The position numbers were made by a program, and so were the translations under genes. The notes below the pieces were generated by a model, which was not told where the DNA came from, searched no databases, and worked only from the letters and a program-made list of their open reading frames with translations. Below are positions 1-45,354 of a stretch of 45,354 nucleotides of DNA, piece after piece (the first letter of the stretch is position 1; each line of letters opens with the position of its first letter). The stretch is taken from NCBI GenBank assembly GCA_038877255.1, contig JAVYWZ010000004.1, positions 1-45,354 on the forward strand, in the 5' to 3' direction. Source of the stretch: Candidatus Micrarchaeaceae archaeon. Its GTDB lineage: Archaea > Micrarchaeota > Micrarchaeia > Micrarchaeales > CABMGC01.

Positions 1-162
1 TAAGGACTTGTGTAAAATAAAGTGGCATGCCCAATGCAGAGAAGAACAACAGGATACGCAATAAAGGCGAGGCAACAATGCAAAGAAGTATTGCCGCTTA
101 AGTGCAAACTCCAAAGTTGCTGATGCAACAGAAGTCCAGCTCGCAATGGCGTGGTAGTTCAC
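1..162 (+). mobile_element. Non-autonomous tnpB-derived mini-element, copy A (cut by window start)
   Basis: 1-127 matches 9272-9398 with one mismatch. ATG at 27 opens MPNAEKNNRIRNKGEATMQR, matching the tnpB remnant start at 42015. Ends in GAAG...GGTAGTTCAC, an IS200/IS605-type right-end/omegaRNA terminus. Confidence 0.7.
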
Positions 163-281
163 CAAGAATATGGTGAAGAATAATAAATGCTTATCGCACT
201 CTAAACACCCAACAAACGAAACACTTTCATTTAGTATCTTTGCCTTTCAAAAAGTAACATTTATTAATGTTTTTGCTGTTA

Positions 282-400
282 GGCTAATTGTCGATTGTAA
301 GAAGCCGGAGGCTCGGGAGGCGTGCTCGCTCTTGTTAGGCTCCAGCAGGAGATTAAGCCAAATTCCCGACCCGCTACTACGGCAAGGAGCCATCATGCTT
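282..400 (+). ncRNA. tracrRNA: Putative tracrRNA (boundaries approximate)
   Basis: 285-301 TAATTGTCGATTGTAAG is the exact reverse complement of repeat nt 1-17. It is followed by GC-rich stem-loops (AGCC...GGCT enclosing GGGAGGCG/CGCTCTT) and preceded by TATA-like TTTATTAA at ~260-267. Confidence 0.85.
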
Positions 401-424
401 ATTTGTTGAGACAAGGGTGCCTGT

Positions 425-3415
425 TTGGCTGAAGATGTGAACATCCAAAAAATTCCAGAACAACTAACGGAGCGTATAAAGGAGTTCAATTCTGCATTCA
501 AATTAGGCATAGACCTAGGCACCAAAACCGGCGGTGTGGCGCTTGTAAAAGATAATAATGTGCTTTTTGCTAAAACTTTCTTAGACTTCCACAACGAGAC
601 ATTGAAAGAAAGGAGAGAGCGCAGGCGCAACAGGCGTAGCAGATTAGCTAAGAAGAAGAGAATTGCAAGGCTAAGGTCTTGGGTATTGAGGCAGAAAGTA
701 GCTGGCAAACAGCTGCCTGATCCTTACGACCTTAAAATAAAGAATATGGTTCTAAGCAAGTTGCTCAAAGAGAAAGGCATTAGTGGGGAAGATAAAAAGA
801 ATGTAAGTAACTGGAGCGAAGTTGTTATAAAAGGATACGATACGTCTCCAGAAGCTTTCGTTAAAGCACTAACCTTGATATTCAAGAAAAGGGGCCAATT
901 GTACGAAGAAATGGCAGACCATATAAAAGATATGACAGACGAGCAGCTAAAGAGTTATATAGAATCTCTTAAGGTAATCACTAACGAAGCTAAAGACGCG
1001 CTGATTGAGGAAATAAATTTGAGGCAAAGCATTGCTGAAAATGGCAGACTTATAAGAACGTACAGCACGTTACAAGAAAAAATAAAAGAAATAGCGGATG
1101 AGTCAGAGCACAGCAAATCTAAAGCCAAGGACAGAAAACAGCGTGAAGCTGAGATAAAACAGCTTGTTGAGGCGTTCTGCAAAGCAAATAATATAGATGA
1201 CAAAACATGCCAAAAATGGATTTCTGATTTAGCAGGGCTTTTGAATAAACCTGTCAGAAAAGCAAGGTTTCTGAACCGCATAGTAATAAGATGCAATATT
1301 TGCGACAAAATTACGCCAAAGAAGTCACGAAAGGATATTAGACCTCTTCTATATGGCCTTGCAGTAATAAACTTTATAAAAGCGGGCAGGCTTGAACCTA
1401 ATGAAGACCTTAAAAAAGAGTTTAATACATTATACGATGAAGCCGGATATATAAGGCAGAAGATAATTAACAACGAAAAAATGAGTGATGAGGAGAAAAA
1501 GGATAAGAGAGCTATATTAAACCGTCTCAAAAAGTACATAAATAAGGATCTGCGCGAATATGAAAAGAAACGAGCGACCGATAAGCAAAAGGAAATGTTA
1601 GATCAAATTAAATCGCTACTTTTTGATAAGCTAACAGGCAGGTCTAAATATTGCAAGAAGCATTTAGAAGAACAGGCAAACGGCATTGATATAGAGAAAG
1701 GCTATCACGGCCAGTTGCATAAAAGGTATGGCCGGAATTTCGCGCAACAGAACCACGACAAGCGTGTTATAAACCTTATCGAGCAATTGTTTTTTAATGA
1801 AAACGAGACTCTTGCTAATGAGATCAAGAATAATGACATAAGATACATTACCATAGAAGCACCAAAGCCTAATACAAAAAGAACAAAGAAAGGAGAAGTA
1901 ACAAAGAAGGATACGAGAACAATTAAGGAGAAGCTTTTTGAAGAGCAAGTAGGTGAGCAAGGAACCATTTGCATATACACTGGGCAATCGCTTTCCAAAG
2001 ATGAGATTGAAAAGTATGAGAAAGACCACATATTCCCCGAGTCAAGAGGCGGTCCATCCATACGCGATAATCTTGTTCTAACAACTAAGGAAATAAACGT
2101 AGAAAAAGGCGACAGAACCCCTTGGGAATGGCTTCACGAAGATTCCTCGAAATGGGAAGCGTTCAAAAGCAGAGTTGAGATGCTTTATAAAAAAGGCAGG
2201 ATAACAGAAAGGAAAAAAGAGTTGCTTCTAAACAAAAGCAACGAATTTCCTGGCGATAACCCTACTGAACTTGCTAGAGTAAGTGCGCGCATAAACAGTT
2301 TTATTTTGGAAATTAATAAAATGCTCAAAAAGCACGGATTACCAGAAGCACAAACTTTGTTTGAGCGGGGTAAGCCTATTGTGCAAGTTGTAAGAGGTGA
2401 GGAAACACAAAAGCTTCGCAGGCAATGGCACGCGGAAAACGAAGGCTTTATTCCGCTAAAAGATAGAGCTTACTCATTTAACCATGCAGAAGATGCGGCT
2501 ATCGCTGCAAGCATGCCACCAAACTTTTGGAGATTGCAGATTTATAGATATAAATGGTCTTTTCCAGATGGCAAAGAACGCCCTGACTTTGCTTTGCCAG
2601 ACATTGCACCTCACTGGAGCGCGTTTGTAGAATCTAGAAAAGAGCCCATAATATGCGTACTTGGCAAGACAAAGTATTCATGGAAGAGAAGCATAATAAA
2701 TGAAACTATCTACAAACCTTTTAACGAAAGATCGTATTATAAAAGCATAAATAAGAGAGACCTAAAAAGTGCCAGCAAAGCTATAAAGGATGAAGTGCCG
2801 CTTAAAGAGCTCAATGAGCATAAAATGAGTGAAAAATACAACTATTACCACATAACATACAATAACAAGCGTTACTTAATTAAGGCTCCAAAGGGCGGTT
2901 CGAGTATATTGGTAAAGCCGCATGACGGTCCGCAAAAGCTTTTGGAAATATCACCAAAATATGAATTTGTACTTTTGGGCGAATCAGACGGCAAAATCAA
3001 AAAGATATACAAGCCAATATGGCCCATACTTAAGATGTATGAAAGCGGGGTAATAAAAGACATCAAGGACAACGAACTCAAGAAAAACGTAGAACTGTAT
3101 TACGAATTCTTTAAAGACAAGAAAAATGTTTTGTCAAGTTATAAAAAATTATATTTGCACGATATTGTATATCTTGATACTAAAAAGCATAAAGGCTATT
3201 TCATTACTACCAAATTTTCTTCTAAGCAAGGAGTAAAGGCACTTCCAGAGTCAAAGGTAAAAATAATGTATGCCTATAATGGGGGTCAAAGCGAAGGAGA
3301 AGATGTAAAAGGCGAAAAGAAGGAAAGCAACGAAATAACTTTAGGTAATGAGGATTTGGCTTATATAATAAAGCATGGTGTTGTTTACAGATCTGGGTTG
3401 CGTTTACGGATCTAG
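425..3415 (+). CDS. cas9: Compact archaeal Cas9 (ARMAN-1-like, type II-C2/II-D), 996 aa
   Basis: RuvC-I GIDLGTKTGG, Arg-rich bridge helix RRERRRNRRSRLAKKKR, Zn motifs CNIC and CKKH, RuvC-II ITIEAP, HNH EKDHIFP...N, RuvC-III NHAEDAA. Adjacent to tracr and array. TTG start after SD-like AGGGTG. Confidence 0.97.
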   Translation: MAEDVNIQKIPEQLTERIKEFNSAFKLGIDLGTKTGGVALVKDNNVLFAKTFLDFHNETLKERRERRRNRRSRLAKKKRIARLRSWVLRQKVAGKQLPDPYDLKIKNMVLSKLLKEKGISGEDKKNVSNWSEVVIKGYDTSPEAFVKALTLIFKKRGQLYEEMADHIKDMTDEQLKSYIESLKVITNEAKDALIEEINLRQSIAENGRLIRTYSTLQEKIKEIADESEHSKSKAKDRKQREAEIKQLVEAFCKANNIDDKTCQKWISDLAGLLNKPVRKARFLNRIVIRCNICDKITPKKSRKDIRPLLYGLAVINFIKAGRLEPNEDLKKEFNTLYDEAGYIRQKIINNEKMSDEEKKDKRAILNRLKKYINKDLREYEKKRATDKQKEMLDQIKSLLFDKLTGRSKYCKKHLEEQANGIDIEKGYHGQLHKRYGRNFAQQNHDKRVINLIEQLFFNENETLANEIKNNDIRYITIEAPKPNTKRTKKGEVTKKDTRTIKEKLFEEQVGEQGTICIYTGQSLSKDEIEKYEKDHIFPESRGGPSIRDNLVLTTKEINVEKGDRTPWEWLHEDSSKWEAFKSRVEMLYKKGRITERKKELLLNKSNEFPGDNPTELARVSARINSFILEINKMLKKHGLPEAQTLFERGKPIVQVVRGEETQKLRRQWHAENEGFIPLKDRAYSFNHAEDAAIAASMPPNFWRLQIYRYKWSFPDGKERPDFALPDIAPHWSAFVESRKEPIICVLGKTKYSWKRSIINETIYKPFNERSYYKSINKRDLKSASKAIKDEVPLKELNEHKMSEKYNYYHITYNNKRYLIKAPKGGSSILVKPHDGPQKLLEISPKYEFVLLGESDGKIKKIYKPIWPILKMYESGVIKDIKDNELKKNVELYYEFFKDKKNVLSSYKKLYLHDIVYLDTKKHKGYFITTKFSSKQGVKALPESKVKIMYAYNGGQSEGEDVKGEKKESNEITLGNEDLAYIIKHGVVYRSGLRLRI

Positions 3416-3621
3416 TAAAATATAAATTTTAATATTAGTTTGGGCAATAAGCCGTATGCCTTTGTTTTCTCAAAACTTAATTTTTATCCGTCGTATGTGC
3501 GTCATTAAATCTAATTAGCAGAATCTCTCGAGAGCACTTAAGGACGCTGACTTCTCAAATGTCTGCTTGCTTCACCATAAGGCTAATCTTCGTAGGATTC
3601 GCTTTTACGGCCTTCACCCGG

Positions 3622-3642
3622 AGATATATATAAATATCTTCT
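3622..3642 (+). promoter_or_regulatory. Probable CRISPR leader-proximal TATA element
   Basis: AGATATATATAAATAT immediately upstream of the first repeat. Confidence 0.45.
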
Positions 3643-4185
3643 CTTACAATCGACAATTAAATATTTTGTTTGTGTAATACATAAATCCGCTGAAATTGGC
3701 GTTTTATTCTGTATCTTACAATCGACAATTAAATATTTTGTTTGTGTAATATAAAACAATAATTGACGATTTTAGATGTTTTAATCCTTACAATCGACAA
3801 TTAAATATTTTGTTTGTGTAATTTGCCTTTAATCTTGTGTATTAAAGTATATGTTTGTTATCTTACAATCGACAATTAAATATTTTGTTTGTGTAATACA
3901 ACAGAAAAATATTAAGAAACCCATCAATTTTTGACTTACAATCGACAATTAAATATTTTGTTTGTGTAATTCTGAAATATATGAACTATGGATTAACGGG
4001 TGCTATGCTTACAATCGACAATTAAATATTTTGTTTGTGTAATAATAAAAATATTTAAAAAGCCACGCATGGGGTAAGCGCTTACAATCGACAATTAAAT
4101 ATTTTGTTTGTGTAATTTCGGCAGCAGGATATATAATGGAGGTGCAAGACTTACAATCGACAATTAAATATTTTGTTTGTGTAAT
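3643..4185 (+). CRISPR. CRISPR array: 8 identical 36-bp repeats CTTACAATCGACAATTAAATATTTTGTTTGTGTAAT, 7 spacers (36,36,39,37,37,37,33 bp)
   Basis: Repeats start at 3643, 3715, 3787, 3862, 3935, 4008, 4081 and 4150, with TTACA...TGTAA inverted ends. The + orientation is inferred from the + strand anti-repeat pairing with the repeat 5' half. Confidence 0.98.
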
Positions 4186-4194
4186 TTCTATGTA

Positions 4195-4785
4195 TTAAAA
4201 CACATCGTCGCAGAAATTCCTGAATTCGCAGAAGATGCATTTTGCTGTTGATTCCGTAGGCTTAGGTCTTGTACTGCGTAAAATATCTTTTCGCAGATTA
4301 GCTGCAATTTCTATCACTTTTTCTTTATCTTTATCTGTTATGATAATCTTCTCTAATCTTGTAGCGGTATCTGAATATGCATACACAAAGTAACCTGCTA
4401 CTGATTTCACCTTTAAGGAGTCTTCAATAAGCATGGCGTATGCTGTCAGTTGGGTCTTATATTTACTTGGGTCTGCACTATACTTAATTTCTATTGGATA
4501 CGCCTCTCTATCACCAATCAGGGCATAGTCTAGTCTCCCCTGAAGCATTAGGTTATGGCTTCTGAGTTTTAGATTTCTTGCCAAACGGTAGCCATTAGCA
4601 ATCTTATCGCGGAAAATCATTTGCATATTTTCTATAGTTAATGACTCTTCAAAACTCTTTCCAACAAGCATTCCATAAGTTTCGTATCCCGCTCTCGCTA
4701 TTGTGTTGTTGTAGAAAGGTATTCTTGCGCAATAGGCATACTGTTTGATATCGTTTACATTTATCCAGAGTTCGGTATATCTCAT
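4195..4785 (-). CDS. cas4: CRISPR-associated Cas4 exonuclease
   Basis: N-terminal YAYCAR, RecB-like GRLD...PIEIK and QLTAYA, C-terminal CxxC-x5-C (KCIFCEFRNFC). Confidence 0.95.
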   Translation of the reverse strand: MRYTELWINVNDIKQYAYCARIPFYNNTIARAGYETYGMLVGKSFEESLTIENMQMIFRDKIANGYRLARNLKLRSHNLMLQGRLDYALIGDREAYPIEIKYSADPSKYKTQLTAYAMLIEDSLKVKSVAGYFVYAYSDTATRLEKIIITDKDKEKVIEIAANLRKDILRSTRPKPTESTAKCIFCEFRNFCDDVF

Positions 4786-5090
4786 ACTAATTTACTTCTT
4801 GAATACTTGTGGAAACTGTGTAGTTTCTCGCCCATCTTTTCTATAAGTTCAAAGTCGTTTATTTCTCCAATGGCTATTTTTTGGACGAGCACGCTTATTG
4901 GACCGTCGTTCTTTGCAATTTGCTTTAATGCTGTTTTCAGATCCTTTAGTGCCGGCGCCGTCAGCGAACCTGTAAACACGCTATACTGTATGCGCGCAAG
5001 GTCGAAGTTTAGGCATGTATTGATTATCTTCTGCCGCGTATTGTCATTAGTGCAATCATACGAAACTATTACGCCGAACCTGTATGCCAT
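4782..5090 (-). CDS. cas2: CRISPR-associated Cas2 (ATG at 5090; ORF track starts at 5099)
   Basis: IVSYD and RIQYSVF motifs; lies between cas1 and cas4. Confidence 0.95.
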   Translation of the reverse strand: MAYRFGVIVSYDCTNDNTRQKIINTCLNFDLARIQYSVFTGSLTAPALKDLKTALKQIAKNDGPISVLVQKIAIGEINDFELIEKMGEKLHSFHKYSRSKLV

Positions 5091-5092
5091 AA

Positions 5093-6154
5093 TTACCACT
5101 TGAACAAGTACTTTTCATAGTTTCCATTACCCTTGAGCATATTGGCAACCGAGTAGATATTGCTTTGGATTATAGAGCGCATAGTAAGCCTCTTTCCAGA
5201 GTAATATTCTTTCTTTTCAAGCTCTGCTATTATGCCTCTAGACAATAATTTCTTAGAATCGTCGCTTAGCATCCCATCATCTAAGGTTATCTTCTGCCGC
5301 CTATTGATTATTGATAATACCACTTTATCCACAATCCGCGGTTTAAAAGGCTCACTAAGGTCGAGAACTAGAGATGGTTTGCCTGGCCTGTCGGTATGCA
5401 AGAAGCCTGCAAACGGCTCTAACCCAGCATTCAATATGCTCATCCAAGTCAAGGAATAAAGAATTGCATATCCATAATTTATGGAAATATTGACTATGTC
5501 TTCGCTTTCATGGTCGCGTGCTTCAAAGCCGCAGCCAGGCCTCAATACGCTTGCGAAAGCTTTCCAGTATACACGTGCCGCAGTAGCCTCTATGTTAAGC
5601 AGCTGCAGTCTTGCCTGCGCCAGGCTGTGTCCTTCAACATTATTTAGCAAGGGCAGCGTGTGTTGTATGCTGTGAACATATCTCATGATATGTATTGTTC
5701 TTCCAGCTTTTTTGTTCTTTATTGAGTACTTTATTAGTGCCGCTTGGTTGCTTATTTTAGATTCTAGCGCTTTCTTCACAAGGTTTAAGCCAATCTCCTT
5801 GTCTAGAGCAGCAAATTGCGCACGCTTAACTTCTGCGAACGCAGCCAACTGCGGCGATGAAATCATAACATTCGGATAGCTATTGCTCCATATACATATC
5901 TTTATTCCGCGTTTGCATGCCTCTTTTATCAAAGACGTCGATATCGATGCTCCTCTTGATGTTATTATTATTTCGTCCAAATCCGACATTGCATATTGCG
6001 CTATTACTTCCTTTTTCTTCTTTATGATAAGTCTCTCAGACTTTTTGCCTATGAAGTATCCGAAGCCCGATATGATTAGGGTACGTTGGTCTACAACATT
6101 GAACAACTCTCTTAGATTATGCGTCTTTGTGGCTGAAACGCTCACTAGAGTCAC
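5093..6154 (-). CDS. cas1: CRISPR-associated Cas1 integrase (in-frame GTG at 6145 is an alternative start)
   Basis: EATAARVYW, NISINYGYAILY, GFLH and SLVLDLSEPFKP motifs. Confidence 0.97.
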   Translation of the reverse strand: MTLVSVSATKTHNLRELFNVVDQRTLIISGFGYFIGKKSERLIIKKKKEVIAQYAMSDLDEIIITSRGASISTSLIKEACKRGIKICIWSNSYPNVMISSPQLAAFAEVKRAQFAALDKEIGLNLVKKALESKISNQAALIKYSIKNKKAGRTIHIMRYVHSIQHTLPLLNNVEGHSLAQARLQLLNIEATAARVYWKAFASVLRPGCGFEARDHESEDIVNISINYGYAILYSLTWMSILNAGLEPFAGFLHTDRPGKPSLVLDLSEPFKPRIVDKVVLSIINRRQKITLDDGMLSDDSKKLLSRGIIAELEKKEYYSGKRLTMRSIIQSNIYSVANMLKGNGNYEKYLFKW

Positions 6155-6670
6155 CTATTTTCAGAAGACAATTAGCCATATAAAAGTATAGATAGGTGAC
6201 TTTATATTTGGCGCGCATTTCTTTTGTTTCGTTTGTGCTATGTAAGATTGCGTGTGCGTACATTTTGCGCCAATGAACTTGTTGCTTGTTAGTTTTGCCA
6301 CATAGCCTATGCATTTTTGTCTTAGGATAAATGGAGCAAATTACTCTCAGATTGCTGCCTTTAAAAACGATTATTTGGCGGTTCAAAAGCCCAGAGAAAC
6401 ACTAAAATAAGCAAGTGTTTCGTGCCCCTTTTTGCCGTGTTTCTATAGTGTCATACATATAAGCAAAACTTCAACGTATTATCTTATTACATTCGCATAT
6501 GCGGAATGCATAAAAGCTTTTGTATAATATGTTTTTTGTGGAAGGTTGACTATACCAGATGGCCTGGTGTCATTTTGGTTTTGGTTGCCTTCCACATCTT
6601 GTTTTTGCTTGCTTATGAGCTCTAATAGTTAAAGATATAAATAGCCGCATAAAAGTAGATATTGATTCCA

Positions 6671-8179
6671 ATGGCCGATAGCCAGCCAAAGAAAGCAGAC
6701 ACAAGAAATCCTCAGGCAAAAGAAGCATATACCAAGGCAGGCCAGCTGTTCGAAGAGAACAGGTTCGAAGAAGCGATAGACCTTTACAGCCAGGCAATAA
6801 AGCTTGATCCGGTATATTCAAGCGCATATTTCAACAGGGCTCTTTCTTATGCGCTTATAAACCGCTACGACAACGCAAGGCTTGATGCTGAAAAGGTAAT
6901 GGAGCTCGAGCCTGACAGCTTCGACGCCCCTTATGTTCTTGGTTTGGTTAACGAATACGAAGGCAACTTTGAAGACGCCAAAAGCTGGTATGAAAAGGCG
7001 CTCAAGATAAATCCTGATTATCAGCCTGCAAAGACAAGGCTTGAGCAGCTCGCAGGCAGGCTAGGCGTAGAACCTAAGCAGCAACGTGCAAAAGGTGCGC
7101 CTGCTTCTGTCTCAATTTCTTCAAAAGCGGTAAGCGAAGAAGAAGAAAACAAAACTGTGACTGAGGAAGGCCAGATAAAGCGCATACGCTGGTACAAGTC
7201 TAATCTGTCTTTCAAAGACATCATAGGCTTGGAGAAACAGAAAGAGATGATTTATGAAAACATAATACTTGCAATACGCAAGCCAGAGCTGCTTAGAGCA
7301 TACGGCAAGAAGCTTGGATTGGGAGTGCTTTTTTACGGGCCGCCAGGAAACGGCAAGACATACATTGTTAATGCAATAGCAGGAGAGACACAATCCAATG
7401 TCATAGTAGTGCGCATACACGAAATCGTGGACATGTATGCTGGCAATACGGAGAAAAACTTGCACGCGGTATTCGAGCAAGCCAGAGCTCACACGCCGTG
7501 CATACTCTTTTTCGATGAGATAGACGCATTGGGCATGAAGCGAGAAGGCAGCGGCGATCAGATGAGCTATATGCGAATGGCAGTGAATGCGTTCCTAACC
7601 GAAATGGACGGCGTGGAGAAAAACCCAGAAGGCATATTTGTAATAGGTGCAACAAACCAGCCCTGGGACATGGATCCAGCACTGAAGAGGAGCGGCAGGT
7701 TTGGCGAGCGTATTTATTTCCCGCCTCCAAACTACAAAGCGAGGAAAGGGGCTTTCAAGTACAACACGCGCAACATGCCCCTTGGTAGAATCAGCTTTGG
7801 CAGGTTAGCACGCGCCACTATGGGCTATTCGCAGGCAGACATAAGTGATATCTGCGATAAAGCAGCACTAATACCTGCTGTAGAGGAAGACAAAACAGGC
7901 GTGAGGAGAAAAATACAAATGAAAGATTTTTTGAAGATGATAAAATTGCATAGCAGCACGCTTGATGAATGGTATGGCATGATGCGAAAGGAGATAATAA
8001 GTAAGACAGAAACACAGATAGTAGAGGGCAAAAAAACAGAGATAGTGAAAGAGGGAAAGCTAACGCCTGAGGAGAAAGTCCAGTACAAGCTTTTGGTGAA
8101 AGATGTCAAGAAAAATTCAGGCTCATGGCACAAATTCATAGTGAAGTTTTCCAGATTTGTAGCCTTGCACCTATTCTAA
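6671..8179 (+). CDS. TPR-domain AAA+ ATPase (CDC48/Vps4-type AAA module)
   Basis: Three N-terminal TPRs; Walker A GPPGNGKT, Walker B FFDEID, second region of homology ATNQPWDMDPALKRSGRF. Confidence 0.9.
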   Translation: MADSQPKKADTRNPQAKEAYTKAGQLFEENRFEEAIDLYSQAIKLDPVYSSAYFNRALSYALINRYDNARLDAEKVMELEPDSFDAPYVLGLVNEYEGNFEDAKSWYEKALKINPDYQPAKTRLEQLAGRLGVEPKQQRAKGAPASVSISSKAVSEEEENKTVTEEGQIKRIRWYKSNLSFKDIIGLEKQKEMIYENIILAIRKPELLRAYGKKLGLGVLFYGPPGNGKTYIVNAIAGETQSNVIVVRIHEIVDMYAGNTEKNLHAVFEQARAHTPCILFFDEIDALGMKREGSGDQMSYMRMAVNAFLTEMDGVEKNPEGIFVIGATNQPWDMDPALKRSGRFGERIYFPPPNYKARKGAFKYNTRNMPLGRISFGRLARATMGYSQADISDICDKAALIPAVEEDKTGVRRKIQMKDFLKMIKLHSSTLDEWYGMMRKEIISKTETQIVEGKKTEIVKEGKLTPEEKVQYKLLVKDVKKNSGSWHKFIVKFSRFVALHLF

Positions 8180-8188
8180 TTTTTAAAG

Positions 8189-8260
8189 GGCCTTGGCCGG
8201 GGGTCGGACCCGGGCCTGAGGATCCACAGTCCTCCATGCAGCCGTTACACCACCAAGGCC
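8189..8260 (-). tRNA. tRNA-His(GTG) with genome-encoded G-1
   Basis: Cloverleaf with acceptor GCCTTGG/CCAAGGC and anticodon arm GAGGA-CTGTGGA-TCCTC; atypical T-loop TCCGACC. Confidence 0.92.
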
Positions 8261-8404
8261 ATCGCAAGCAGCACTTTTTATAATATTGCTCGTAAAAGAT
8301 TTATAAAAGTGAGCGGGAAAACATATCATTCAGATAGGGGATGAGAGCGAACCGCAGAAATGCATATAAATTTTGAGACGCATAAAACTATAACCATGAT
8401 CGTC

Positions 8405-8782
8405 ATGAAAACTGCATACAAATATAGGGCATATCCTTCAATGGAACAAAAGGCAAAATTAGATAGTCAAATGTTCCTCGCAAAAAATCTCTACAATCTT
8501 CTTCTTGAAAAATCGAAAGCGTATTACAAAGAAACAGGGAAGACGCTCACCAAATGCGGAAACGCGCAGGAAATGCCCCTGAACAAAAGAACATTCATAT
8601 GCGAGAAATGTGGAAATAAGGAAGACAGGGACATAAATGCATCAATGAATATACTCAAACGAGGCATACTCGCAAGAGCTACCGAAGGACATTCGGGAAG
8701 TCAAGCCTGTGGAGACGATGTAAAACCTTCCGTAAGGGAGGCAATTGCCGGTGAAGCAGGAACTATACGGGTGGCATCATGA
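8405..8782 (+). pseudogene. tnpB: IS200/IS605 TnpB with large in-frame internal deletion
   Basis: N-terminal HTH (KTAYKYRAYPS...LYNLLL) joined at ~8551/8552 directly to the C-terminal Zn ribbon and RuvC-III (KCG...FICEKCG...DRDINASMNI). RuvC-I and RuvC-II are missing. Confidence 0.9.
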
Positions 8783-8836
8783 CGATCAATCAAGCCACCC
8801 TGGAAGCCCACGAATTCATTCGTGGGAGGATGTCAC
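8670..8836 (+). ncRNA. TnpB omegaRNA/right-end (reRNA) scaffold
   Basis: Stems GCCTGT...AGCAGG and GGGTGGC...GCCACCC, then terminal hairpin GAAGCCCACGAAT-TC-ATTCGTGGGAGGATGTCAC, overlapping the tnpB 3' end. Confidence 0.75.
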
Positions 8837-8845
8837 TAAACGAAT

Positions 8846-8969
8846 GGCGGGGTAGCTCAGCCTGGTTAGAGCGCTAGACTCATATGCTCAGCATAATGAA
8901 TGATGAGCTTTCTTTGCGATGATTAGCTGGGATATCTAGAGGCCGAGGGTTCGAATCACTCCCCCGCCA
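8846..8969 (+). tRNA. tRNA-Met(CAT), elongator-type, with 49-nt intron at 37/38 (8885-8933)
   Basis: Acceptor GGCGGGG/CCCCGCC and anticodon stem CTAGA/TCTAG. BHB with central helix CUCA/UGGG and 3-nt bulges. Ile2 identity is not fully excluded. Confidence 0.9.
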
Positions 8970-9089
8970 AACGCTTACGCGCTTAGCCAATAGGTGCAAT
9001 GCGTAAAACATGCAATTTCTGCTTCGCTGCAAAGCCTAAAGTCCTGTTAGGGCTTTCAAATTTTGATTGAAGCACTAAATTTGCTAAAT

Positions 9090-9433
9090 ATCGCCTCGCC
9101 GTCAATAAGACAAAACATATATCTGCAATAAGGTATTCAACCCAACACCACAAAACCGCAAAAGGTTAGGTATAAATAAATCAAAAGCCGTTAACCCGGC
9201 GAGCGGGAAGCCTGACTTGGCGAGTGCATGAAGCGAGCAAAGGCTTATAGAAATAACCTGCGAGAAATACATAAGGACTTGTGTAAAATAAAGTGGCATG
9301 CCCAATGCAGAGAAGAACAACAGGATACGCAATAAAGGCGAGGCAACAATGCAAAGAAGTATTGCCGCTTAAGCGCAAACTCCAAAGTTGCTGATGCAGC
9401 GGAAGCCAATTCCGCAATGGCTGTGTAGTTCAC
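9090..9433 (+). mobile_element. Non-autonomous tnpB-derived mini-element, copy B (left boundary uncertain)
   Basis: Near-identical to 1-162; 9197-9306 is similar to 33513-33626; ATCGCCTCGC at 9090 is shared with the left end of copy D; ends GGAAGCC...GTAGTTCAC. Confidence 0.7.
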
Positions 9434-9446
9434 TGAATATGGTATT

Positions 9447-9752
9447 ATGCAAAGCTTTACAAGATTAATGCACATAGAGCGCGTGAAGCGCATACTTGAT
9501 GCCATAGCCTATGGTTCTCTGTTCCTTGACATAGCAGTGGCAGCAATAAATTTTATTGCTTTGAGGCAGAACAGTTCAAGGCTTAGCGCTGTGCAGTTCT
9601 GGCTTTCAGTCGGTCTGAGCATAGAAGTAATAGTAACCATATTCCTGTTTCTGGTGCTTCTGCTACTGTATCATTACAACAAACTGGAGTGGCTCATGCT
9701 CATAGGCAAGCGCGTCCGTAAATACAAGCAGCATCGCCGCTTTCAAAAGTAA
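9447..9752 (+). CDS. Small membrane protein, unknown function
   Basis: Two hydrophobic segments and a basic C-terminus; upstream of the DUF373 gene. Confidence 0.7.
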   Translation: MQSFTRLMHIERVKRILDAIAYGSLFLDIAVAAINFIALRQNSSRLSAVQFWLSVGLSIEVIVTIFLFLVLLLLYHYNKLEWLMLIGKRVRKYKQHRRFQK

Positions 9753-24142: not shown

Positions 24143-24239
24143 GCAGGGATGGCGGAGCTTGGTCAAACGCGACAGACTCAAGATCTGTTGGCTTAAGGCC
24201 TGCGGGAGTTCAATGCTTGAACAAATCTCCCTCCCTGCA
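24143..24239 (+). tRNA. tRNA-Leu(CAA) with 11-nt non-canonical intron at 58/59 (24214-24224)
   Basis: Acceptor GCAGGGA/TCCCTGC, arm ACAGA-CTCAAGA-TCTGT and long variable arm. Removing TGCTTGAACAA restores T-loop TTCAAAT. Confidence 0.92.
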
Positions 24240-33460: not shown

Positions 33461-33512
33461 ATACCAGATTTTCAATCTCAAAACAACGCGGAGTACGCAG
33501 AAAGATTAGCCT

Positions 33513-33626
33513 CGGCGAGCGGGAAGCCCTGACTTGACAAGAGCATGAAGCGAGCAAATGCGCATAAAAATAACCTGCGATAAATATACGAGGAATTGCA
33601 TAAAATAAGGCGATACTATGCCCAAT
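33513..33626 (+). mobile_element. Partial (left-portion) copy C of the tnpB-derived mini-element
   Basis: CGGCGAGCGGGAAGCC...GCATGAAGCGAGCAAA...AAATAACCTGCGA...ATGCCCAAT, colinear with 9197-9306. Confidence 0.7.
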
Positions 33627-33705
33627 CCATAGGGTGTTGACTTTTATATCATAACATGCGATTAGCCTTTTTATGGTCTCTTATTATATCACTTCCACAA
33701 TTTCC

Positions 33706-41677: not shown

Positions 41678-42078
41678 GTGAACTGCCCCGCTCTTACAGA
41701 CTGGGCTTCCGCCACGCCCGCAACCTTGTGGCTTCTCGCTTCAATGGAAATGCTTGCTTTCACATGCGGAATACTTTTTATGTATTCGAGTATGCTACTT
41801 GCAGAGGTGTAATCCTCTTCGAGCGTCTCCAGAGACCTATGTGGTTTGTAAACCACTTTCCTTCAAGAAAGAGCCTTTGAAGCGCATCAGATCTTTGTTT
41901 TGATATTTGCTTTTATCAAATTTTATTTCATATACTTTTGCAGTTTTGCCTTTCCGCTTTGCCCTTGTTGCCTTGCCTTTTTCTCTTATCTTCTGTTCTT
42001 TTCTGCATTGGGCATATGCCAATCTATTTTACGCAATTCCTCTACACGCTTGCGCATGTGGTCTCCTTGCGAGGCGAT
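41678..42078 (-). mobile_element. tnpB: Copy D: degenerate tnpB element with frameshifted N-terminus fused to C-terminal tail and right end
   Basis: ATG at 42015: MPNAEKN.../IREKGKATRAKRKGKTAKVYEIKFDKSK.../FLEGKWFTN, then tail ...SIEARSHKVAGVAEAQSVRAGQFT and right end GAAGCCCAGTCTGTAAGAGCGGGGCAGTTCAC. Confidence 0.7.
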
Positions 42079-42118
42079 GTGATTAAAGCTGTTTGAAGAG
42101 TACAAAAGCAACAATACG

Positions 42119-43943: not shown

Positions 43944-44095
43944 TAAATCGCCAAGCTTTTAAACTATTATTACTCCTGCGTTTATATTTTTGTGTTTCAG
44001 GCAACGCGCGCTTACAAAAACAAAGAAGCATATTGGCTTCTGAACTCGGTATGAGTGGCTATAATATGTGCATATATCGATTTTCCAGCGTCACA

Positions 44096-44967
44096 GCAAA
44101 AGCTTTATAACCACAAAGGTTTTAGGAGTATGCAGGTGAAATGTATGGGAGGCGCTGTTGGCGGCTAAATTATATTAGCACAATAATCTATTTCTAGTAA
44201 TTAGTTTGCCTATTTTTCTGTTGCTCTTCTTTCTGCGATAGTTCTTCTATCACTGGGAATTGTAGTGTTACTTCTTTGCTTATCCTCCTGTAGCCGATAC
44301 TGCCTAAGAGAACTCTTGACACAATACTTGTGCTTACTGTAGCGCCTTTTACAAACTCGTTCAGCATGTCCTCTATTTCCTTGATGTTCTCAGAATATGA
44401 AGGCACGACAAACAATAGGCCATAAGGAGCGCCTATGTCGCCAACTAGCGCATATGTGCTCGCAGGTGTGTTTGGCAGCAACCAGCTGCTAGTTCATATG
44501 CACTTGAAACTCCACGCAATACGTTGAACTTAAAATGTTTGCTTCTACGGCTCTGGTCACATATACTGTTATTCCTGTGGCGTTGCAAAAGCTTTATAAA
44601 CACAAAGGTTTTAGGGGTATGCAGGTGAAATGTATGGGAGGCTGTGTTGGCACGTAAATTATGTTAGCATTTGGCGTTGCTTGCTAGTAATTAATTTGCC
44701 TGTTTTTCTGTTGCTCTTCTTTCTGCGAAAGTTCTTCTATCACTGGGAATTGTGGTGTTACTTCTTTGCTTATCCTCCTGTAGCCAATACTGCCTAAAAG
44801 AACCCTAGACACAATACTTGTGCTTATAGTTGAGCCTTTTACAAACTCGTTTAGCATGTCCTCTATTTCCTTGATGTTCTCAGAATATGAAGGCACAACA
44901 AACAATGCGCCGTAAGGAGCGCCTATGTCGCCAACTAGCGCATATGTGCTCGCAGGCGTGTTTGGCA
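44096..44967. repeat. ~490-bp-period tandem duplication (44096-44477 and 44585-44967)
   Basis: Colinear, highly similar copies covering the gene 3' end and its downstream intergenic DNA. Confidence 0.9.
44194..44481 (-). pseudogene. Duplicated 3' fragment of the neighbouring Lrp-like gene
   Basis: LPNTPASTYALVGDIGAPYG...QKNRQTNY is nearly identical to the C-terminus of 44684-45319. Confidence 0.75.
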
Positions 44968-45354
44968 AGTTTATCATTTGCTGTAGGAACCTTTTCCTGT
45001 TTTCGTTGAAAAAGCCAATTTCGGTCTGCTCGCATACAGCAAGCACATCATACTTTTTAGGCAGTGTTTGCATAGTTATAGTGGCACGCAAGATAATGCC
45101 TCTCTCTATAAGTTTGTGATATATGTATTGGGATGCGCCGCGCTCGAAGCCTAGGAGCCTGTCCATCTCCACAAACTCCAGCCTGCTGTTCTCGTTAAGA
45201 AGTCTAAGGACTTGGAATTCTCTCTCGGTTATTGCGCCTCGCGGCTTTCTTGGCGTTTCCTTTGTTCTGTGCCATACTTTTGCCTTTAAGTCTTCAAAGA
45301 ATGCGTCTCTTAGAAGCACGTAACCATAAGCATAAGTAATGTATGTAACTACCC
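44684..45354 (-). CDS. Lrp/AsnC-like winged-helix protein, 5'-incomplete
   Basis: ITEREFQVLRLLNENSR...YHKLIERGII wHTH; the frame is open to the window edge. Confidence 0.7.
   Translation of the reverse strand, partial: VVTYITYAYGYVLLRDAFFEDLKAKVWHRTKETPRKPRGAITEREFQVLRLLNENSRLEFVEMDRLLGFERGASQYIYHKLIERGIILRATITMQTLPKKYDVLAVCEQTEIGFFNENRKRFLQQMINLPNTPASTYALVGDIGAPYGALFVVPSYSENIKEIEDMLNEFVKGSTISTSIVSRVLLGSIGYRRISKEVTPQFPVIEELSQKEEQQKNRQINY

Follow-up and report, generated by a model that had tools for sequence, protein, structure and literature searches.

Internally deleted tnpB mini-elements on either side of a Cas9 island in a Micrarchaeota-like archaeon

The window analysed here, 45,354 nt long, is the entire contig C4 of the genome of a Candidatus Micrarchaeaceae archaeon (G000; a 713-kb assembly of 30 contigs, 92% complete). 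It contains four short repeats derived from the transposon gene tnpB, copies A to D, the first two of which lie on either side of a small CRISPR-Cas9 locus. It is very probable that these repeats are non-autonomous, internally deleted copies of a tnpB-only IS200/IS605 element (IS1341-type), akin to palindrome-associated transposable elements (PATEs) and miniature transposable elements with inverted repeats (MITEs), and that A and B are immobile relics unlinked to Cas9.

The element family and its parent

BLAST and nhmmer searches place the family on 17 of the 30 contigs, with conserved ends set in unrelated flanks, and some 23 loci were counted in G000, a figure that is our own tally from the match tables of these searches mapped onto the full-length parent. 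That parent, 1.43 kb long, codes for a TnpB of 446 aa whose sequence begins MSNAEKN and which carries the OrfB_IS605 and TNB domains. A first-pass annotation of the window had proposed non-autonomous tnpB derivatives and had named the lack of a parent tnpB as something that would refute it; the proposal is borne out, in that the full-length parent was found on contig C7 and a deletion junction shared by the smaller copies shows that they spread as minis. The loci take the following forms.

Full-length parent: one locus, C7:40017-41451
Type I minis, ~235-247 nt: nine loci (C1, copies A and B on C4, two on C5, C9, C10, C15 and C16), in which full-length position ~287 is joined to ~1469
Type II minis: two loci, C6:39338-39559 and C9:26190-25931 (minus strand), in which the left end and promoter are fused to ~150-190 nt of the 3' region, with no tnpB start
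Ends-only forms, ~100 nt: two loci, C17 and C2
Other internal deletions: four loci (copy D, C19, C25 and C26)
3' fragments: two loci
Left-end fragments: three loci

The breakpoints of the type I deletion are two AAAGC stretches, and the same junction is carried by three minis in G002, one of the five congeners (G001-G005) that with G000 make up the six genomes of the genus. As this junction is common to nine loci of G000 and three of G002, it is the mini itself that spread after one deletion. The type II minis include the TATA-like box of the promoter, and a further locus of this form (L026) is present in G002. Among the 41 genomes searched the family is confined to G000 and G002; metagenome-assembled genomes (MAGs) of Micrarchaeota, 'Nitrososphaeria' and Thermoplasmatales encode relatives of its TnpB that are 44-91% identical.

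Within the window the family is represented as follows.

1-162, plus strand: copy A, a type I mini with a remnant ATG at 27, the deletion junction at ~82-85, a stop at 99-101 and the right end GGTAGTTCAC at 162
9190-9194, plus strand: GTTAA, at the transposon-adjacent motif position of copy B, where the family consensus is TTTAA
9195-9433, plus strand: copy B, a complete type I mini of 239 nt with the left end, the TATA-like CTTATAG and the right end at 9433
33510-33629, plus strand: copy C, a left-end-only fragment matching full-length positions 117-238 and reaching just beyond the remnant ATG
41678-42082, minus strand: copy D, a 405-nt derivative joining full-length positions 201-399 and 1400-1551, an independent deletion

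Copy A and positions 9272-9433 of copy B repeat each other in direct orientation, with 93% identity across 162 nt; as had been described from the window alone, both encode MPNAEKNNRIRNKGEATMQRSIAA* (a 24-codon frame) and both end in GGTAGTTCAC. In B the remnant ATG lies at 9298-9300, the junction at ~9353-9356 and the stop at 9370-9372, and the right end is 13 nt upstream of the ATG of an open reading frame (ORF) at 9447-9752. The start first assigned to B, at about 9090, has to be moved: the element begins at 9195 after GTTAA, and 9090-9190 is other repeat debris outside it, of which 9107-9184 is 83% identical to C8:1682-1605. Copy A is cut off on its left by the first base of the contig, and it lacks a left end only because of this assembly break; truncation of a similar kind is seen on C10, which begins inside one copy, and on C9, which has a run of Ns inside another. 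Copy C does keep the left part of the element, as first described.

The account of copy D fared less evenly, since its deletion is indeed different from that of A and B, whereas its left end is of another type and its reading frame ends after nine codons. D follows TTTAA (42087-42083), lies 36 nt from a tRNA-Gln and keeps 152 nt of the 3' region. Its left end (42032-42082, minus strand) reads ATCxCCTCGCAAGGAGACC... and has its own hairpin; this second type recurs at C27:2122-2177, C7:21244-21298, C19:1763-1714, C1:85251-85300 and C11:17132-17195, and it precedes another full-length TnpB, of 433 aa, on contig C27. Because the second left-end type is found on both the C27 TnpB element and D, the latter looks, by its sequence, like a chimera that joins two families of element.

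A functional 24-aa peptide was also considered as a product of the minis and was rejected: the frames differ among the nine type I minis, the predicted products range from 10 to 53 aa and their C-termini are not alike.

The left border of the element was set by comparison of the C7 and C14 flanks, which are 98% identical, and falls between ...CATTTAA and CTC...; of the 18 left ends whose border is precise, 13 come after TTTAA and five after GTTAA, ATTAA or TGTAA. On the right, flanks diverge immediately after GTTCAC. Flank alignments show no visible target duplication, and a repeat search found no inverted repeat at the ends. The helices of the right end are 77-92% paired, without covariation. 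A Thermoplasmatales MAG contig carries a copy of the same family in the order left end-tnpA-tnpB (91% identity across 58 nt of the left end and 86% across 369 nt of the tnpB region), which therefore identifies the family as IS200/IS605 with a Y1 transposase; in this copy, as in the full-length copy, the left end has a hairpin of 8-9 bp.

The type I minis would have arisen by one deletion between the two short AAAGC stretches that removed ~1.18 kb of tnpB and spared the left end, the tnpB promoter, some 25 codons at the gene's start and the terminal 83 nt with the right-end hairpin, and the ~240-nt product would then have been copied around the genome. By the established mechanism of the family, a Y1 TnpA acting in trans would excise one DNA strand by way of sub-terminal hairpins, and the excised strand would be re-inserted directly 3' of TTTAA, leaving neither terminal inverted repeats nor a target duplication. 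That copies lie around the Cas9 genes would follow from numerous insertions into intergenic DNA that tolerates them, frequently close to tRNA genes.

Several observations weigh against this account. TnpA (PF01797) was found neither in the 92% complete G000 nor in any of its five congeners, and a serine recombinase (PF00239) was likewise not found in G000; with no TnpA in the genus, the agent of past spread is something that we infer rather than see. Both tnpA and tnpB of the Thermoplasmatales copy have in-frame stops, the left-end hairpin was not recovered by folding in B, single-sequence fold energies are unremarkable (z +0.3 to -2.5, with the right-end folds at z -1.5 to -2.5) and the left half of A is unassembled. 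In addition, the right flanks of A (163-174) and B (9434-9445), otherwise unrelated, share GAATATGGT at a 2-nt offset, a likeness that is unexplained. As to TnpA, 20 of the 41 related genomes do carry it, and for this reason its loss or non-assembly in the genus is the simpler reading. Delivery of the enzyme to the symbiont from its host was entertained and dropped, TnpA being this common in related Micrarchaeota-like genomes. Given that TnpA is missing from G000 and its five congeners and that the left-end hairpin of B is degraded, A and B are now most likely immobile.

Neither B nor a second, 540-bp mini-element that lies nearby is present at the orthologous site in G001, G004 or G005, and G002 has an independent insertion in the same spacer, after tRNA-Met and in the opposite orientation.

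8845-8970, plus strand: intron-bearing tRNA-Met(CAT), whose downstream spacer received insertions in G000 and, separately, in G002

The closest counterparts of the minis are the PATEs of Haloquadratum walsbyi, whose source is IS605-type/IS1341-type (tnpB) transposons and which arise by core deletion of IS605-type elements and likewise spread with no intact tnpA at hand (Dyall-Smith et al. 2011, PMC3119063). They share with the present elements a gene-less, multi-copy form without terminal inverted repeats or target duplication, an origin by internal deletion of tnpB elements at short repeats with several forms per parent, and strain-specific insertions even though intact tnpA is scarce or missing. 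Two differences stand out: the present host is a Micrarchaeota-like symbiont with a 0.7-Mb genome, and the commonest form here keeps the tnpB promoter and ~25 codons, whereas ends-only forms of ~100 nt are a minority of two loci. Copies A to D are, in sum, an ordinary, partly decayed PATE/MITE-like family, and the kind of element is already known.

The 3' region and the guide-RNA question

Across 20 copies of the full-length type, conservation extends over the last ~185 nt, a stretch with many hairpins (GCCUAGG/CCUAGGC, AGAGG/CCUCU, GAAUAC/GUAUUC and a two-tier terminal hairpin). This structured region overlaps the end of the parent ORF and stops at the right-end border, and a predicted long-range pairing of GGGCU with AGUUC, the latter located 3-7 nt before the border, is a candidate pseudoknot. 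With the type II minis added to the alignment, 13 double-change cells were counted against 5.8 +/- 1.8 in shuffles, none of 500 shuffles reaching 13, and hairpin 1 showed four covarying pairs, figures that by the tool's own warning are inflated by related rows. Compensatory changes fall in two hairpins of the type II minis, GCCUGCG/CGCAGGU being an example. The full-length element thus described probably carries an omegaRNA, and the C6 and C9 minis of type II look, from these patterns, like true guide cassettes.

The first-pass annotation had offered such cassettes as one possible reading of the family, A and B included. Transcription from the tnpB promoter would yield an RNA whose 3' 83 nt load the C7 TnpB in trans; the guide would be the DNA to the right of the element, and TnpB would re-cut the emptied site and in this way retain the mini. 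A TATA-like box and the end next to the guide are indeed preserved in the minis, and PATEs often encode omegaRNAs used in trans according to Meers et al. (PMC10055086). Two other minis, C6:39338-39559 and C9:26190-25931, keep nearly the entire 3' scaffold with compensatory changes, which likewise speaks for the reading. Against it, what A and B hold of the ~185-nt region is no more than the final 83 nt, the terminal hairpin. They have lost ~100 nt with hairpins 1, 3 and 4 and the GGGCU strand, the predicted partner of AGUUC, and the functional scaffold of ISDra2, 116 nt long, requires such a pseudoknot (PMC10097598).

Three structures were tried on the terminal 85 nt of 31 copies and none exceeded shuffles in covariation, the paired fraction being 83% as against 26-44% when the structure was slid along the alignment. 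The GTTGC/GCARC hairpin, said at first to vary in a pairing-compatible way, does exist in A, B and D, and it is paired in 67% of cells among the 31 copies, but its variation is in no excess over shuffles. A family-wide helix, TTGCGGA/TCCGCAA, is 77% paired, and by inspection it is reduced in A to five of seven pairs. With only 83 of ~185 nt kept and covariation no better than in shuffles, it is doubtful on sequence grounds that A or B yields a guide RNA that works, and we regard the cassette interpretation of these two copies as improbable; they would hold a guide-proximal fragment of the presumed omegaRNA that is unlikely to guide the resident TnpB. As promoter-plus-guide-RNA cassettes, the type II minis would be far better candidates. 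A scan of the 16 nt after 17 right ends as potential guides, allowing up to three mismatches, gave 1-21 matches each, a range that includes each end's own site, applies no motif filter and was inspected for the first four matches per guide only, and it is little informative. Rfam returned only tRNAs, both for the window with the gathering threshold and for the C7 TnpB locus (L007) and L008 with E <= 1, and the family of this clade may be uncurated.

The protein that any such RNA would serve aligns to ISDra2 TnpB (E 1.6e-8). In a set of 80 sequences, the C7 TnpB and 79 relatives, the RuvC-I aspartate (D211) is present in all 80 and the RuvC-III aspartate (D373) in 78. The canonical position of the RuvC-II glutamate (residue 298 of the C7 protein) is glutamine in 80 of 80, and two residues past this invariant glutamine stands glutamate in 51 and aspartate in 28, as in the parent, so that 79 of the 80 are acidic there. 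To judge from this alignment, the RuvC-II site of the clade is of the rearranged type, such sites having been surveyed by Altae-Tran et al. 2023 (PMC10691335). That the resident TnpB has both aspartates and an acidic residue two positions past the glutamine is a further point in favour of guide cassettes.

The TTTAA motif that we place before the element is also the motif used by SisTnpB1 of Sulfolobus islandicus (bioRxiv 10.1101/2023.03.06.531077), and, as in ISDra2 TnpB-omegaRNA and SisTnpB1, the guide region would begin at the right-end border and the 3' structure overlaps the end of the ORF. The predicted GGGCU/AGUUC pairing recalls the pseudoknot of the ISDra2 scaffold (PMC10097598). Unlike either system, the C7 TnpB clade has glutamine for the RuvC-II glutamate, and its RNA has no Rfam family match. 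The idea that PATE-like elements provide TnpB with omegaRNAs in trans is already published for Geobacillus stearothermophilus (Meers et al. 2023, PMC10055086). Those elements resemble the present ones in having left and right ends in common with tnpB elements, and the two type II loci, on C6 and C9, match the description; A and B differ in keeping less than half of the conserved 3' region, in a genome with no cognate TnpA.

A second mini family and other features of the window

The 540-bp element mentioned above belongs to a second family of tnpB-derived minis.

8299-8839, plus strand: second tnpB-derived mini, ~540 bp, ending GGATGTCAC, 6 nt upstream of tRNA-Met
8360-8782, plus strand: intact 140-aa ORF with HTH_OrfB_IS605 and a TNB zinc ribbon and no RuvC-I/II

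At least four near-full copies and ~20 fragments of this family are present in G000, in which its full-length parent was not found. The tail of the 140-aa protein aligns to the C-terminus of the C7 TnpB, pairwise ratios of nonsynonymous to synonymous substitution (dN/dS) among four copies of the ORF are 0.18-0.46, and forms of 139 and 125 aa with independent in-frame breakpoints occur in other metagenomes. By these ratios the remnant protein is under purifying selection. A structure prediction from four sequences was unusable, with a mean pLDDT (predicted local distance difference test score) of 50.1. One may imagine a trans-acting network in which the single C7 TnpB, with its rearranged RuvC-II site, draws guides from gene-less cassettes dispersed in this TnpA-less genome, the C6 and C9 minis among them, and the 140-aa 'mini-TnpB' acts as a regulator or RNA-binding partner; we rate this as unlikely. 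If it were true, the 140-aa product, consisting of the helix-turn-helix (HTH) part and the zinc ribbon/C-terminal tail, would be a protein kept by selection and not a dead remnant.

Two further observations concern the window at large. Intron-bearing tRNAs, one of the signs of a Micrarchaeota-like DPANN archaeon, are present in G000, in whose assembly 37 tRNAs were called; at 24143-24239 (plus strand) Rfam recognises a 97-nt tRNA (44.8 bits), presumably intron-bearing, that was missed by ARAGORN with its intron search. At 44071-44967 there is a ~490-nt tandem pair, 93% identical over 287 nt and 84% over 110 nt, which overlaps an ORF at 44684-45352 (minus strand).

The Cas9 island and its relation to the repeats

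The Cas9 genes form a small type II locus that is context for the mini-elements and lies outside them. The protein-coding genes of the island were assigned with Pfam.

225-6486: Cas9 island
285-301: tracrRNA anti-repeat, in the island
425-3415, plus strand: cas9, 996 aa
3643-4185: CRISPR array, eight repeats of 36 nt
4195-4785, minus strand: cas4
4782-5099, minus strand: cas2
5093-6154, minus strand: cas1
6662-8179, plus strand: AAA+/TPR ATPase, a core gene between the island and copy B
8188-8259, minus strand: tRNA-His(GTG), the sole tRNA-His in the assembly

A Cas9 of Micrarchaeota ARMAN-1 was reportedly described by Burstein and colleagues in 2017. The present locus is likened to it in that a Micrarchaeota-like genome carries a small Cas9 together with cas1, cas2, cas4 and an array; the mini-elements are no part of that system. 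The archaeal Cas9 work of Burstein et al. 2017 is cited in PMC8784108.

The limits of the island follow from two lines of evidence. Run X1, a public hot-spring data set, has contigs for 225-6181 that match the window at 93-95% identity and have a depth of 39-57, and contigs identical to the window that span 6755-8260 with a depth of 3-5, the depth dropping past ~6480; the diverged island copy, homologous from ~225 to ~6480, is thus about ten-fold deeper than DNA identical to the adjoining AAA gene of G000. In addition, window positions 6487-6598, the promoter region of the AAA gene, are 97% identical to C22:9484-9595, at the very end of contig C22. The depth profile and the C22 match beginning at 6487 together place the island at ~225-6486. 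The G002 genome has C22-like DNA upstream of the AAA gene, and the repeat shared by C22 and the AAA gene region may represent the ancestral junction or else a variant that lacks the island; only G002 matches C22, and for G001 and G003 tblastx (1e-8) found nothing in G000 that corresponds to the DNA upstream of this gene. Since Cas9 was not found in any of 40 relatives, the island is an acquisition, and the ten-fold deeper, diverged copy in X1 means that it is shared with another, more abundant population.

It had been proposed that A and B bracket this island, and the borders do not support it: the right one falls at ~6480-6487, and B begins at 9195, 2.7 kb beyond, past conserved genes that include the sole tRNA-His. 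The right end of A is ~60 nt from the left border, and the DNA to the left of A is unassembled. In congeners lacking Cas9, a comparison that had been suggested as a search for a breakpoint inside the repeat, the genes found here between the island and B keep their synteny, the order AAA gene, tRNA-His, tRNA-Met, DUF373 being kept in G001, G004 and G005 without Cas9, B or the 540-bp element. The eight stretches that follow the array repeats (seven spacers and the 40 nt after the last repeat) gave only chance matches of 12-17 nt to the genome and the TnpB loci. A and B are not edges of the Cas9 island and very probably have no functional link to it.

The nearness of A and B to other genes raises the possibility that the minis are portable promoters, the tnpB promoter reading through the right end so that B drives the ORF at 9447 and A drives tracrRNA and cas9. 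The spacing would suit this, with B ending just before the ATG of that ORF and A ending ~120 nt upstream of the anti-repeat, and the TATA-like boxes are conserved in the minis; yet the ORF has the same context in congeners without B, and copies lie in both orientations and in varied contexts, which makes the notion very unlikely. Least credible of all, and largely refuted, is the suggestion that A and B, as direct repeats of the identity given above, mobilise or delete the CRISPR-Cas9 island by recombination: the island is acquired and A lies close to its left border, but B is not its right border, the genes between are syntenic in congeners without Cas9 or B, an A x B deletion would lose the only tRNA-His among the 37 tRNAs, and Logan contigs of runs X1-X3 contain no A-B joint (rare forms being invisible in contigs).

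Three points matter for this archaeon and its transposons. Eight contig ends lie within the mini family or the 540-bp family, so that these repeats account for assembly breaks; they are best masked as transposon debris rather than annotated as small genes or as parts of the CRISPR locus. The island, to judge from its diverged copy at about ten-fold depth, moves between populations by a route other than the mini repeats. Finally, the copies constitute a natural deletion series, retaining 83, 152, ~150-190 and ~195 nt of the 3' region, with which the smallest sufficient guide scaffold could be worked out for a clade whose RuvC-II site is rearranged.

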